Source: Basidioascus undulatus
Taxonomy: Eukaryota
Assembly: GCA_000826855.1 (NCBI GenBank)
Contig: JTLS01000059.1
Location: forward strand, 1 to 36,208
Direction of reading: 5' to 3'
Length of the DNA: 36,208 nt
The position numbers and the translations under genes are program-made. Below, piece by piece: positions 1 to 20,507 of this stretch. Position 1 is the stretch's first letter. Each line of letters starts with the position of its first letter. Below the pieces are notes generated by a model that was not told the origin of the DNA, searched no databases, and was given only the letters and a program-made list of their open reading frames with translations.

Positions 1-3
1 AAG

Positions 4-39
4 TCGTAGTCAGATACTCTACCATTGAGCCAGCCGGCC
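4..39 (-). tRNA. tRNA-Arg(ACG) 5' half (positions 1-37), followed by CTT (intron start or trailer) up to the window edge
   Basis: The reverse complement reads GGCCGGC TG GCTC AATGGTA GAGT A TCTGA CT ACG A|CTT. This gives the acceptor 5' strand, a D arm (GCTC/GAGT), the anticodon stem 5' strand and anticodon ACG at 7-5. It breaks at the canonical 37/38 intron position. Confidence 0.9.
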
Positions 40-40
40 A

Positions 41-76
41 TGACCGACGCAGGGATCGAACCTGCAACCCCCTGAT
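41..76 (-). tRNA. tRNA-Arg(ACG) 3' half (positions 38-73), located upstream of the 5' half
   Basis: The reverse complement reads A TCAGG GGGTT GCAGG TTCGATC CCTGC GTCGGTC A. TCAGG pairs with TCTGA (anticodon stem), the T arm is perfect with a GTTCGA B box, and GTCGGTC pairs with GGCCGGC (acceptor stem, two G-U). The discriminator A is at 41. Confidence 0.9.
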
Positions 77-81
77 CTCGA

Positions 82-95
82 CTACCATTTGCTCA
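82..95 (-). promoter_or_regulatory. Pol III A-box-like element upstream of the tRNA-Arg 3' half
   Basis: TGAGCAAATGGTAG aligns with the real A box TGGCTCAATGGTAG (32-19). T8G9 and AATGGTAG are identical and the stem positions have diverged. Function is inferred only. Confidence 0.45.
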
Positions 96-1301
96 CGCTC
101 CTGGTGCCGAACACTTTCAAAGTTCTTTAGAGCTTTCAAAATATTTTAGAACAGCTAAGAAACGGTACCCAAGAAGCTGCTAAAATATAAACCGATACCC
201 TACCATGCAGGGGGCTTTGAACCTGGTTTGAAACACGATCCTAGTGCGTTTAATTGATTTATGGGATGGGTATCTGCAGGGTTGTTGTGTAATTTGTGTA
301 GCCAGAGCGAGCTGCTGAAGATTGCGCAGGCAGGCAGGTTACTCTGAGAAGTATGGTTTCGCTAGCATGCTACTCTCGGGCTCGCGTACAGGGCTATTGG
401 ACCATAAATGAAAGATGTGTGAGGCTTTTTCTCGAGCGTAAACCGTTATTGTAGGCAACACTCTTGAGTTGGTACAGCTGTGACCTGAACAACCGCACTT
501 CTCTCTGTATTGCAACGGAACTGAGAGCTCACAGGGTCTGAAAGGGATTAAAATGTGCACAAAGAAAGAACCTGAGAAACTTAGAGAGATCACCTGCACA
601 GCCCGTCTCGCATGAAAGCGCAACCTGCAACCTGGGAAGATGCTGTGTTGCTAGCAAAAAGGGAATGGCTTCCCCTCCCACTAACTGTTCAAGTCATGGT
701 AAATCAGTCTTAGTAACCTCGGTTTGGTTTGTAATTCACGGGCCATTTGCGTAGTTTGTGAGGTGACGGGCAACTACTGCACCAGGACAAACAGGCACTG
801 AGAAGTTGCAAAGTGTGGCAGCCTTGGGCCAACCTCACTCTAGCATGGAAGTGTGGTATAGCGTCTCCAAAGCCATCATATCAGTCAAATCGAACAGGGA
901 GTTGCGGATGGCTTTAAGGCTGCGTGGCTTCGTCGAAGCCCCAGCGGACTGCAGCCTTTGAACAACTAACAACATTGATTCGCGTGTCCTTGTTCGGGCC
1001 AAGTCACAAAAGCTCTGAGACTTGTCACACATGGAAAGTAATTCGTGAAATGTCAAGCACACACCGATACCTAAAACGTTGCAAGTTGAGTGTTGCGTTT
1101 TAGATTGTGCTTCCTCGGGTCATCCACGGCCAGAAATTCGGAGCTCGGCACATCTCGCCCGACCCGGTCAAGCGTCTCGCGTTTTTCTGGCTTGGACTTG
1201 CCTTTCCACTTTGCCGCCTGGCTGCACCGCTCGCTTCGCTTTCCGCTCTTTGTACTATACCCGCATCTCCCCGGTCCACACACCCCTAGAAAAAAGCAGA
1301 G

Positions 1302-3046
1302 ATGTCTCCCCCGGCAGGCGGCAAGTATAAGGAGTCCGGCACCGCTCGTGTGCTCGGCTCGGGCGCGTCTGGTCAGTCCTCCCTCAGCTGCTTTTGATCT
1401 CGATGAGGAGACTGACGGCAGGTGCGTGCGGCAGGTATTGCGGAGCTCTTGGTGCGAAGGGTGTCCTCTGCTGGTGCCGTTGCCTGAGGTGCTGACAAGT
1501 GGCATGGCGGGACGTGCAGGTCTTCCACCCCATCGGTGGGTCGTCTTCCTTATCTCGGAGTCAAACTGCGGGGCTGGGACGAGGAGGGAGCGTCTGGCCG
1601 AAGAAGCCGTTTGGGACGCTGTCACTGGCGCATTCGATAGCATGGCGTTCTCAACCGCTCTCTCTTTTGTGCGAGGGGGCGTTGGATCCGCCGCAGGAGG
1701 CGTCTTCTCTTGTTCGCTGAGCTTCCGGCTGTCACTCCGGGCTCCGCGGACTCGGCGGTCCGCCGCCTCGTCGTCTTCTCGTCTCACGACTCTACTCGGC
1801 ATACACTCTTCAATGTCTCGAACTCGTGCTAACGTTTCGTCGCACGCTATGCAGACACCATCGCCAAGCGTCTCATGACCAACTCGTCGCACGTCGGCAT
1901 GTCCAACCTGAACACCGTCATCTTCAAGAACCACGCTGCCTCTCCCCTGACGACCAAGTTCTTCTCGCTCTTCCCCGGTCTCGGCTACGCGGCGGGCTAC
2001 AAGGTCGCGCAGCGCGTGTACAAGTTTGGCGGCCAGCCGTACTTCAACGACCTCATCAACTCGCACTACGGCTCGTCGTTCAAGGCCGCGTTCGGCGACA
2101 AGAACGGCAAGGCCATCATGTCGGCTACGGCGGGCAGGTGAGTAGTTTAGTAGGCAAAGTGTGATTCGAAGCGGAGGTTTACTAACGGTGACGGGGCAGC
2201 TTGACGGGTATCGGCGAGGTGGTGAGTAGCGGAAGGTGCACACGAGGCAAGGGGGCTCGATCTGATTCCGGGTCTCGCAGGTCCTTCTCCCGCTTGACGT
2301 CCTCAAGATCAAGCGCCAGACGAACCCGGAGGCGTTCAAGGGCCGGGGTATCTTCAAGATCGTGGCGGACGAAGGCTTTGCGCTCTACCGGGGATGGGGT
2401 TGGAGTCCGTCTACCTGCTTCACCCCGACTCGACCCGTCAGCTGACTGACGTTCCTTTCACAGCCATGGCCCGCAACGCTCCGGGTTCCTTCGCTGTGCG
2501 TCTCAATTCCTCACTGGGAAGCTGGGCGGGACGCTGCTGACCTTGTACGGGCTGCAGCTCTTCGGTGGTTCTGCGGTGACCAAGGGTTACCTCTTCGGCC
2601 TTGAGGACTACAGCAAGGCGACCTGGACCCAGAACTTTGTTGCGGTACGTCATTCATTCCCTCATTCCGCTTCCGCGAGGCCCGTGCTGACGGGAGGTGT
2701 CTGTGCGCTGGCTCAGTCCATCGGCGGTGCCGTCTCGTCCATCACCGTCGCTGCGCCGCTCGACGTCGTCAAGACTCGTATCCAGCAGGCGAACTTCGAG
2801 AAGTCCGTCTCCGGCGTTACGGTCATCAAGGACTTGATCAAGACAGAGGGGCCGACCGCGTTCTTCAAGGGCCTGACGCCCAAGGTGCGTCTTCCTCTCT
2901 CTCTCCCTCTCCACCCCTTCTCACCTCCAGACTTTTCTGACTCTTACCAATTATTTTGGAATTAGATTCTGGTCGTCGGACCCAAGCTGGTCTTCTCTTA
3001 CACCCTCGCCCAGTCCTTGATCCCCTTCTTTGGCAAATACGTCTAG
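1302..3046 (+). CDS. GGC1: Mitochondrial GTP/GDP carrier (SLC25 family), 10 exons
   Basis: Exons 1302-1371, 1435-1451, 1520-1535, 1855-2137, 2200-2221, 2281-2404, 2464-2495, 2558-2644, 2717-2884 and 2966-3046 are all GT-AG and phase-consistent. The protein contains ARVLGSGASGIAELLVFHPIDTIAKRLMTN, LFPGLGYAAGYKVAQRVYKFGGQP, LPLDVLKIKRQTNPEAFKGRG and APLDVVKTRIQ...FFKGLTPK. It has three PX(D/E)XX(K/R) motifs and closely resembles yeast Ggc1/Yhm1. Confidence 0.95.
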
Positions 3047-17500: not shown

Positions 17501-18365
17501 CCTCGTTCCCGACGTGCACGCTCGCCGCCTGCGGAATCACGACGCGCTCGGACGAGGAGACAGCCACGGAGCGATACGACCCGCACTGATGGTTGTACGT
17601 GCGCGTGTGGAGCCATTGCAGCTTGGCCAGGTCGAGGACGGCGATCTCCTCGATGTACTGTACTCGACGCTAGGTGAGCGGACCGTCGGCGGAATTAATA
17701 CGCATCGTCCCCTTCATGCGAGCCGTTCGAATCTGCGACAACTCCAACATACCTGGTTCTCCTTGCCCTGACCACCCGCGATGACGAGCTTATCGCCGGA
17801 GAGAGAGGAGAGGTGCGCGTAGCGCGGACGAGGAGGAGTGCAGCCCGGTGCGCAGGTCGTCTGCGGCTGAGACCACCTGCGAGAGGTCACGTCGAAGAAG
17901 AGGATGTCGTCCAGCACGGTCAGCTCCTCGGAGCCTGCTTCCCCACCAGCATACGCCATGCCTGCCCACGTTCCCATTTCAGACCTGCCGTTGACAATGA
18001 AAGGAATGGATAGGAGTGCACCTCCGAAAAGCACCAGCTTGTCATGCCAAAGATCCACGGAATGGAAGTACCGCTCTCGTGGCACGAGCTCGCCTTCGGG
18101 GATGCGGACGTACTCCCAGCGGAGCGTCTCGAGGTCTAGCTCAAACATCTCCGCGGTCATCTTGCGCGTCGAGACCTTGCGCCCGCCAAAGAGGAAGAGG
18201 CGCGAGCCGACGACCGTCGTCGAGGCGCCCTGCAACGTGAACCCAGCGCCCAAGTCAGCCCCAGGCTGCCTCTCTTGATAACAAACGCGCACGTACGACG
18301 AGCCCGGGGGGAATCTCGCCAGAGCATGCTTTTGGCGAGCAGGTAAGATCGGAGAGGGAGTGCAT
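14570..18365 (-). CDS. Kelch-repeat + BTB/POZ protein with Ser-rich tail, Ral2/Mds3/Pmd1-like (multi-exon)
   Basis: The N-terminus MHSLSDLTC...GEIPPGLV|GASTTVVGSRLFLFGGR is followed by kelch motifs PRERYFHSVDLWHDKLVLFGG and PRPRYAHLSSLSGDKLVIAGG. Then come YSNYNF, PPGLRFPTG and the BTB-like CSSKLLASRWPWF...FPESYPVALAFLQWIY...LQIRALRVVM. A long Ser-rich exon (about 15917-14845) and two short last exons end in TGA at 14572-14570. The family name is from recollection of the domain architecture. Confidence 0.85.
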
Positions 18366-20507
18366 CGCTGCTGAAGGCGCGCAATGCGCAGCTGGCGGAC
18401 CTCGCTGGCGAGCGAGCGAGGGGAGAAGACGGGCGCTTGGATCGAGACGGCGCGTTTGAGGTCGAACCTGGCTGGCGCTCTTTCGCGCGTCGCTGCTGCT
18501 GAGTATCGGACGGCTGGGACGAGGGGAACAAGATCGGCGGGGGAGGGAAGAACGGAGATGGACGCGGAGGGTCAAGATGAGGGTTGTGTCAGAGCGAAAG
18601 ATCTCGAGGTCGAAGGGGCGCGCTAGGAAGATCGGGGGGAGCAGGTCGGGCGGCCCGTCGCACGCGCCAAAAGCTTGAATGCGCAGCCCAAACGCCGGGT
18701 TTCTTTGTCTGGATATTTGCAGGCTTCTGCCGTAAGCAACTCGGGACGTCTACTGCCTGCACTACACAGTGCAGCAGGACGAGTCCCGGAAGATGTCCGC
18801 ACCAGCAATCTGGGTGAGGCGCACGTGTGAGCACGACCGCCTGTCGATGGGCGCAGATGCAGAACATTCTGCAAGTCCATGGGAGGTTTAGTGGAAGCAA
18901 ATTTTGTTTGTCCGCCACCCTCCCATGTGAAATGGGTTTTAGCCCTAAAGTCTGTTGGTTCAACCAACCATCTTAAGCTGGACCGACTTTTCCCAAAGAC
19001 TTTTCTGCATCGGATCTTGCCCTTGCCGCTGTCTGATAAGCTCGGCCAAGCCGGTACGTAGATGCTGCTATATTCAAAGGCAGTTCAGAATCTCATTAAC
19101 CCATTCCTGGCGAGTGCGACGCACAAACAACGCCGAAAGATCTCCGGTGCTACTGTACAAATATCCACTAGCGATCAATGGCGTGTACATCAATTCCGCC
19201 CCGGTAACTTGGGTCCCCGTCGGGGGATCCGGGGTGGGCAAACCCTCACTGTCCCTTGCTGTCCCGATGAAGTCCAATATTACATCTCCAGTTGGGTCCC
19301 GAAGGAGCAGTAATCCTGCACCGGATCTTGTATAGCCTCCAAGCAATACGATCAGTCAGAAAAGTCTGATCATTAAGAACAACAGGGGATGCACAGGCGC
19401 CGATCAGTGTTCCTCCGCCGTGGACGCCTTCACTGCACAACAGCACATTGCCCCACTTCGTTAATTATCCAAGCTCAGTCCGGGAGTAATACTAAATGCG
19501 ACTCCGGTAACACCAAGCCCAGCACCCAACAACATCCAAGTACCATCATGGCACGCCATCATCATCGTCACTCGGTGATGGTCGTGTGCAGCCGCAGCTT
19601 TCACGCTTGTTGGTCCCTGTTCGTCCTCGCCCGCTCGGATCCTCTACACCGCTCCTCACACGACCAAATCTCACACCTATGATAATATCGCACGGCCTCG
19701 AGGCTCCACGCCGCCTTGCACCCCGCATTTCTCATGATGATCAGGAGGGCCCATGCCAGGAGCGACCGAGCGATGGTCGGTCGCTCATCCGACGACATCT
19801 TTGCTCCGCCCCAGTTCATTTAAACAACGCCTCAAGCCAAGCAGTCTCGCAGAAACCAGGACTCGAGATACTTCCACTTACGCTACTTTTCTTCAACCGT
19901 TTTTCACTCGAGCACCAGGTTCGATTTGATCGTGTGAGCGGGAAAGATCTTCAGCCTCATCGTCGTCGCCCCAGTGCCACGAACCCGGCTGCAGGAACGT
20001 GGCGACGTCGAACGTCTCTGCATGTCTCTTCGATCTTCCCCGATGCCTGCTGCGCGGGCCCATCGCATGGCCCTCCGCTGATCCGACGGACGAAACTTCC
20101 CTTTTCATCAGTAGTTGTTCATTACTTATGAGAGAGCGCGCACCCGAGCACTCATTGATCCCGTGTTCTTTCATCAATGAAAGTGCGCCATAGGGAGACT
20201 GGCTGGGATGCACTTGTATGCACATACGCGTCAACTGCACGGTTAGGAAAGAATGGCCGGCGGCGCAGAAGAGCGGATATAGGCTTGCAGCCAACGTCTG
20301 TGAAAATCTATCAACCCTCCCACATCCGAGCTCAGTCGGTTTGCTCCTTGATGCCTCGGAATGCAACCAGCTGGAGCAAAGCAAAATTGCAGGAAATGGG
20401 TATCGCATGAACGTAAATGGCAGGGTAATGCAAACTGCCAAAAAGCGAGTATGGACTATTGTAACATGAAGCAAGGAGAGAAAGAGGAGAAAGGATGGTA
20501 AAAGGCC

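Follow-up and report, generated by a model that had tools for sequence, protein, structure and literature searches.

Can a fungus encode a transfer RNA (tRNA) back to front? The question arises at the edge of a contig from Basidioascus undulatus (GenBank assembly GCA_000826855.1, contig JTLS01000059.1, positions 1 to 36,208), all 36,208 nucleotides of which were analysed and are called the window here. On its minus strand, the 3′ half of a tRNA-Arg(ACG) gene stands before the 5′ half, with one letter between them. We propose that the window edge cuts through a type II circularly permuted tRNA-Arg(ACG) gene—a gene broken at 37/38—that belongs to a family of roughly ten members or more, dispersed in the genome of a fungus, and we give this reading a probability of about 0.5. 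The gene order, a perfect cloverleaf, a junction present in multiple copies, a conserved leader and the T runs of sister copies are directly seen. The arrangement is real and repeated, and it carries what appear to be the hallmarks of a permuted tRNA gene, in an unexpected lineage.

How is the locus built? The 3′ half of tRNA-Arg(ACG), positions 38–73, occupies 41..76 of the minus strand and occurs once in the window. It comprises A38, the 3′ strand of the anticodon stem, a five-letter variable loop, the T arm, the 3′ strand of the acceptor stem (66–72) and the discriminator A73; read from 76 to 41, it encodes no CCA. A one-letter intervening sequence, T at position 40 (minus strand), separates A73 from G1; it contains neither promoter nor terminator and is crossed by contigs of four sequencing runs. 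The 5′ half, tRNA positions 1–37, follows at 4..39 (minus strand), where its letters, Rfam, ARAGORN and its pairing all identify it: acceptor strand 1–7, U8, G9, the D arm, A26, 27–31 and the loop C-U-A-C-G-A ending at A37, with the anticodon ACG at 7..5. The three letters after nucleotide 37, CTT (1..3, minus strand), bring the unit to the window edge. The original prediction had described precisely this order, with a one-nucleotide linker and a break at 37/38, and its extent for the 3′ half stands; its 5′ half needs correction from 37 letters to 36, ending at position 4, because the D loop is one position short.

Two blocks inside the tRNA resemble the box consensus of internal promoter elements: a B-box-like block in the T arm, GGTTCGATCC (53..62, minus strand), and an A-box-like block in the D arm, TGGCTCAATGGTAGAG (17..32, minus strand). 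The B-box-like block lies upstream of the A-box-like block, the reverse of the order normal for RNA polymerase III (Pol III). An inverted A and B box order is remarked on for permuted genes in a 2014 review (PMC3978253). Directly before A38 lies the leader core TGGTAGTCGAG (77..87, minus strand); likeness to the other copies extends to positions 86–99. Within the leader, GTAGTC (85..80) is the reverse complement of nucleotides 30–35 (11..6), and a G at 79, three letters before A38, is able by eye to face C32 at position 9; such a pair would leave A78, G77 and A38 as a three-nucleotide bulge around the 3′ cut. The leader has the look of an intron’s 3′ end, a likeness that would fit the tandem-duplication origin proposed for permuted genes (PMC3978253, section 10). 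Further upstream on the minus strand, the AT block TAAAATATTTT (138..148), 62–72 letters from A38, is a candidate TATA-like element, and a second AT block, TTTATATTTTA (181..191), lies 105–115 letters from A38. A promoter role for the blocks at 148..138 and 191..181 is a candidate one, inferred only. Over the 124 letters that precede the 3′ half (77..200), the G+C content is 41%, against 58% for the window.

Do the two halves belong to one tRNA? Joined in the normal order by their coordinates, they are called by ARAGORN as a tRNA-Arg(ACG) of 72 nucleotides with four stems intact, and every stem pair in the rejoined halves is standard (21/21). Each half completes the acceptor and anticodon stems of the other, as had been claimed, with seven of seven pairs in the acceptor stem (five Watson-Crick, two G-U) and five of five in the anticodon stem (four Watson-Crick, one G-U). 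Run on the window as written, ARAGORN reports no tRNA gene, and an Rfam scan of the window returns no family at its own gathering score; the Rfam tRNA model recognizes the 5′ half only, over model positions 1–39 at 16.9 bits, cut off at the 3′ end. If our reading is true, standard tRNA finders would miss part of the tRNA set of some fungi, as ARAGORN does here.

Could a partner half lie elsewhere in the window? Each half was found once in the 36 kilobases at up to three mismatches, a tolerance at which none of 100 shuffles gave a match; the absence of an intact 5′ half upstream in the window, previously noted by inspection, holds under this search. The upstream stretch and the tRNA have only the 8-mer AATGGTAG in common, found in the D loop (28..21) and in the window’s leader (89..82), and its score was reached by 43 of 500 shuffles. 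Sharing at the level of shuffles argues that there is no upstream 5′ half, whether intact or degenerate, and a degenerate copy was rejected on these grounds. A circular contig was also considered and rejected, the opposite end of the window being unrelated sequence.

Is the junction itself real? Contigs of four public runs were compared with window positions 1..1200: X1 (2014), X2 (2025), X3, which comes from the same sample as X2, and X4, a soil metagenome. X1 and X2 are possibly the source of the assembly and would then not be independent of it. A contig was taken to bridge position 40 when it carried at least 31 letters on both sides, and the results refer to the contigs listed, beside which stand 98 shorter pieces and 12 loose-end rows. 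Position 40 is bridged by X1 record 1 and X2 record 9 (each over 4..79, with five letters differing from the window) and by X4 record 21 (1..86, two letters differing); it is crossed, with fewer letters on one side, by X1 records 2–5, X2 records 10–13 and X3 records 18 and 20. The junction at 39–41, which the original prediction had left open to being an artefact, is genuine: the joining of 3′ half, T and 5′ half was not produced by assembly. That two tRNA fragments were misjoined at a contig end is hardly credible. The locus does sit at the window edge and its tRNA part is repeated, and the window’s own contig stops at 58 in X1 or 68 in X2, yet the same junction stands in contigs of X1, X2 and X3 and of a soil metagenome. 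Down to those stopping points the window’s own contig is single copy, from 1200 to 58 in X1 (record 8, depth 17.5, no differing letter over 58..1200) and from 1200 to 68 in X2 (record 16, depth 46.1); repetition of the tRNA part in the genome explains why it goes no further.

How often is it repeated, and where? Against a single-copy depth of 17.5, the X1 junction contigs reach 175 (record 4, 15..70) and 298 (record 5, 18..70), about 10 and 17 times as much, and X2 record 12 reaches 473 against 46.1, about 10 times, depth being a rough guide only to copy number. The most abundant of these contigs differ from the window by one letter in 53–56. On the upstream side, contig ends diverge at positions 86–99 (nine ends in X1, seven in X2), with loose ends behind 86, 87, 93, 95, 96 and 99; the consensus agreement of the diverging ends is 0.58–0.68 in six of eight groups, with two single-read rows at 1 and one X2 pair at 0.95. 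The units therefore lie scattered, in surroundings of their own: about ten copies differ in their upstream flanks yet have the 11-letter leader TGGTAGTCGAG (87..77) in common, and at least the last 9–22 leader letters are kept between copies.

Several mobile or tandem arrangements were considered for this family and rejected. Neither a primer-binding site of a long terminal repeat (LTR) retrotransposon nor strong-stop read-through of a nicked tRNA agrees with flanks that vary from copy to copy and with single-copy DNA adjoining the leader. A site-specific retroelement or integrative element inserted at 37/38 would have to reckon with only 9–22 leader letters common to the copies, and such insertions do not place a 3′ half one letter before a 5′ half. 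Integrase duplication was set aside because the flanks carry genes, are single copy and show no relation from one copy to the next. In a tandem array with giant introns, the ‘introns’ would amount to many kilobases of unique, gene-bearing DNA.

What follows the 5′ half in the sister copies? Every listed loose end before positions 2 and 4 finishes in an A run on the plus strand (five in X1, five in X2, one in X3); read on the tRNA strand, they become T5, T6 and T13 runs that begin 0–3 letters after nucleotide 37. In X1 records 1 and 2, whose alignments end at position 4, the junction lies on the same contig as the T run. A run of at least five T stops Pol III, and because it would do so, the T runs after nucleotide 37 cannot start a tRNA intron; those of the sister copies fit a Pol III terminator, not an intron. 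That a T run stops Pol III is likewise stated in the review (PMC3978253). No contig among those listed puts a 3′ half downstream of the 5′ half, the lengths past the 5′ half being 4144 and 2970 letters in X1 records 1 and 2 and 841 and 665 in X3 records 17 and 19. Nor does a listed contig put a 5′ half ahead of the 3′ half (X1 records 3, 6, 7 and 8; X2 records 11, 15 and 16; about 2.5–49 kilobases upstream).

These contigs bear on the idea that the edge truncates a tRNA-Arg(ACG) gene of the ordinary, intron-containing kind, whose intron would begin with CTT and which would follow, one letter on, a 3′ half surviving from a lost upstream copy, in other words a tandem-duplication intermediate. 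The window does end three letters after nucleotide 37, and in a related basidiomycete, Ceriporiopsis subvermispora, introns are present in most of the Arg tRNA genes (15/16; PMC7588917, Table 1). We nevertheless consider this improbable. X3 record 17, of 874 letters, covers 33..1, including the same CTT, with no differing letter and continues for its 841 letters as one unbranched contig with no joint listed; a nearby 3′ half is unlikely behind it, because a repeated 3′ half should have broken the contig. T runs come straight after nucleotide 37 in sister copies, and the upstream 3′ half is undecayed and pairs perfectly with the 5′ half. The original prediction had left the choice between a permuted gene and such an intermediate, to be settled by a T run without a second 3′ half. 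Across the family, the multi-copy junction and T runs (T5–T13, no joints listed) favor the permuted gene; the window’s own copy stops at CTT.

How might such a unit yield a tRNA? Transcription, each processing step and a decoding function are what we infer from sequence. The unit would run in the order short conserved leader, 3′ half (38–73), one T, 5′ half (1–37) and T run. Pol III would start in the upstream AT-rich region, copy leader, 3′ half, linker and 5′ half into one RNA, and stop in the T run just past nucleotide 37. This RNA would fold into a normal tRNA body with its acceptor stem closed by the one-letter linker, while its ‘intron’ would be open-ended, a leader on one side and an oligo-U trailer on the other, with the leader pairing with the anticodon loop. 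The tRNA splicing endonuclease (Sen complex) would cut leader and trailer off at 37/38, and the tRNA ligase (Trl1) would join A37 to A38; RNase P would cut directly before G1, leaving the linker U on A73, where it would be trimmed off, and CCA would be added. Were splicing to come first, a 73-nucleotide circle would arise, as in Cyanidioschyzon; were RNase P to come first, the product would be two base-paired halves, with no circle needed. In yeasts RNase P is nuclear and splicing cytoplasmic (PMC3978253), which would fit the latter order.

The run X3 has a coverage of its own. Its contigs total 16 megabases and contain 0.18 of the sampled words of 1..3000, yet only 1..120 of 1..1200 is covered, a pattern that would fit RNA or very shallow DNA. 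If X3 is RNA, its contigs over A73-T-G1 would be the first sign of transcription.

What weighs against permuted genes that work in this way? Fungal Pol III normally needs an A box before a B box, an order inverted here, and a conserved A box was not found in the window’s leader, which has only the 8-mer AATGGTAG in common with the D arm. The G three letters before A38 is present opposite C32 and can pair with it, as the original prediction held, but RNAfold with the cloverleaf enforced prefers another register, C32:G-1, in which both splice sites lie inside a helix, and does not choose the anticodon-intron register with a three-nucleotide bulge. Left unconstrained, RNAfold finds an optimum of different fold (−32.3 kcal/mol, against −31.0 with the cloverleaf enforced), in which the leader and the end of the 5′ half form a 10-base-pair helix. 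Strain at the linker, anticipated at the outset, is real in that one letter can close the acceptor stem only by fraying G1:C72; yet a precedent of 1 base pair (bp) exists in the tRNA-Tyr gene of Thermofilum pendens. The window’s own copy ends three letters past nucleotide 37, with its terminator beyond the edge, and contigs of the kind used here drop rare variants. The remaining difficulties concern copy number and ordinary genes, and are taken up below with the rival to which they lend themselves.

The 10-base-pair helix would suit a tRNA-like noncoding RNA of the YrlA type of Y RNA, in which a T arm, a closed acceptor-like stem and then a D arm sit on a stem of the paired RNA ends, and the Rfam YrlA model (RF02553) does match at 95..1 (38.2 bits, E 3.8e-06). 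YrlA is a bacterial and phage family, and the host here is a eukaryote. The match is far under the gathering score of 69, and a sub-threshold match is to be expected of any permuted tRNA because the YrlA module is itself tRNA-like, with its T arm before its D arm. Moreover, the anticodon stem and loop halves are intact and perfect, with the break at exactly 37/38, all of which would be needless in a mimic. A Y RNA therefore strikes us as very improbable.

A weightier rival, though one we still hold to be unlikely, is a repeat that derives from a tRNA and is either nonfunctional or selfish: a single tRNA-Arg locus, rearranged into permuted or dimeric form, would have been copied around the genome, for example by reverse transcription of a permuted or circularised pre-tRNA, with ordinary intron-containing ACG genes supplying the tRNA. 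Reverse-transcription models have been proposed (PMC3978253, section 10), and the fairly sharp unit ends, 9–22 leader letters and then a T run, are such as a copied Pol III transcript would have. However, the tail on the tRNA strand is that T run and not the A-rich tail of retroposed copies, and the upstream boundaries vary between copies (86 to 99) instead of falling at a single point. Junction depth, at about 10× plus 17× or ~27 single-copy equivalents, is greater than the roughly 10 distinct upstream flanks and greater than the 8 ordinary tRNA-Arg(ACG) genes that tRNAscan-SE finds in C. subvermispora (PMC7588917, Table 1), which again would suit a repeat; the excess over the flanks could reflect tandem units or a haplotype-specific baseline. 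Ordinary ACG genes could sit among the 98 pieces and 12 rows beside the contigs listed, and if such genes coexist here, as C. subvermispora might suggest, the permuted units may be dispensable. Among the listed contigs themselves, the ordinary 5′-to-3′ order appears in none. A dead repeat should also decay, whereas the halves, the anticodon loop and the leader core are intact, with the single differing letter already given for the top junction contigs.

One contig on this side of the balance deserves description. X3 record 20, of 93 letters, lies on window positions 19..81 and 19..48 and is a rearranged, dimer-like variant, with the order acceptor 3′ strand, T, tRNA 1–21, last five leader letters, full 3′ half, T and tRNA 1–21. 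Its first 30 letters are the same as its last 30, its period is 63, and its joint falls inside AATGGTAG. It may be a dimeric or tandem locus that arose by unequal recombination.

A dispersed family of permuted tRNA-Arg(ACG) genes is the reading we prefer, and what would it mean? tRNA-Arg(ACG) reads the main CGN arginine codons. We hold only tentatively the further claim that the whole tRNA-Arg(ACG) family of this fungus is encoded as permuted genes with a one-letter linker and in no other form. If that is true, the ordinary fungal Sen endonuclease, Trl1 ligase and RNase P must make an essential tRNA from back-to-front transcripts, which would be the first case in fungi or in any opisthokont, and Pol III would transcribe genes with the B box before the A box. 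A multi-copy permuted family in a fungus would show that standard TFIIIC, Sen and Trl1 machinery is no bar to the origin and spread of the layout within a lineage, and would open the circular-intermediate pathway to study in a culturable fungus. With a leader that resembles an intron 3′ end, it would also bear on the tandem-duplication model of origin.

What else does the window hold? An exon of a mitochondrial carrier lies at 2450–2965 on the plus strand (Pfam Mito_carr, E 4.7e-11) and is 55–67% identical to the fungal GTP/GDP carrier Ggc1; its twenty best named carrier matches are nearly all from basidiomycetes, including Wallemia, Tremella, Rhizoctonia and Fistulina. Taken by itself, this evidence supports a fungal host and makes a basidiomycete probable. 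An exon of a Kelch-repeat protein, at 17714–18571 on the minus strand (PF24681, E 1.9e-21), has three relatives only within the length range searched, at 34–40% identity. Pfam domains occur in two of the 52 reading frames scanned (81 frames of at least 130 amino acids exist), in a window whose G+C content is 53–63%, and the majority of the long frames probably arose by chance from the high G+C or else belong to lineage-specific, intron-bearing genes. A weak match to snoR104, a plant H/ACA small nucleolar RNA family, at 283–386 on the minus strand (22.7 bits against a gathering score of 40, E 0.89) was taken as chance, as were Rfam matches to Vax2os1_3 and RF_site8 (E 0.7–5 across the three).

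Where does the family stand among known systems? The 34 permuted tRNA genes known to the 2014 review come from a red alga, four green algae, one nucleomorph and one archaeon, and no fungal gene is among the 34 listed (PMC3978253). A 2026 review of tRNA gene repertoires, in the part available, mentions permuted genes for algae and nucleomorphs only. The original prediction had known of no fungal example, and no case from fungi or other opisthokonts came to light in the one literature collection searched: by title and opening lines of the abstract, none of the papers listed, including those since 2015, dealt with fungal permuted tRNA genes, and for basidiomycetes no paper was returned. A full-text search with a 15-letter stretch of the D arm returned one unrelated paper only, and two short stretches of the tRNA were absent from the supplement of PMC7588917. 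The junction pattern gave no stretches in metagenomes or in prokaryote genomes, and the pattern of 5′ half plus T run gave none in metagenomes.

Set beside ordinary intron-containing tRNA-Arg(ACG) genes of basidiomycetes, the units encode the same tRNA, share the break point at 37/38, and have a leader complementary to the anticodon loop in the manner of an intron 3′ end; they differ in that the halves are reversed and that the T run after nucleotide 37 in sister copies would stop Pol III inside an intron. The precedent for the linker is archaeal. The tRNA-Tyr(GTA) gene of Thermofilum pendens has an intervening sequence of 1 bp, as here, although it is a type IV gene with its junction at 59/60, encodes CCA and is interrupted at 37/38 by a further intron (Chan, Cozen and Lowe 2011, in PMC3978253).

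A close parallel is with the type II genes of Ostreococcus, Micromonas, the Bigelowiella nucleomorph and Cyanidioschyzon merolae (Soma 2007 and Maruyama 2010, as summarised in PMC3978253). The present units stand apart from these in their fungal host, in forming a multi-copy family where the algal genes are single, in an intervening sequence of 1 letter against 5–74 in the eukaryotic cases (Table 1 of the review), and in the isoacceptor, Arg(ACG), which is absent from the 34 genes listed there. Permuted tRNA genes have been tied to organisms with promoter systems independent of internal A and B boxes. The known ones are described as having a type II junction at 37/38, an intervening sequence of 1–74 bp, a TATA-like element upstream and a T stretch after the gene (PMC3978253). 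In their architecture the fungal units follow the algal type II genes closely: the 3′ half comes first, on the same strand and with the break at 37/38, no CCA is encoded, a short intervening sequence links the acceptor ends, AT-rich DNA lies upstream, and a T stretch—seen here in the sister copies—follows the 5′ half (PMC3978253).

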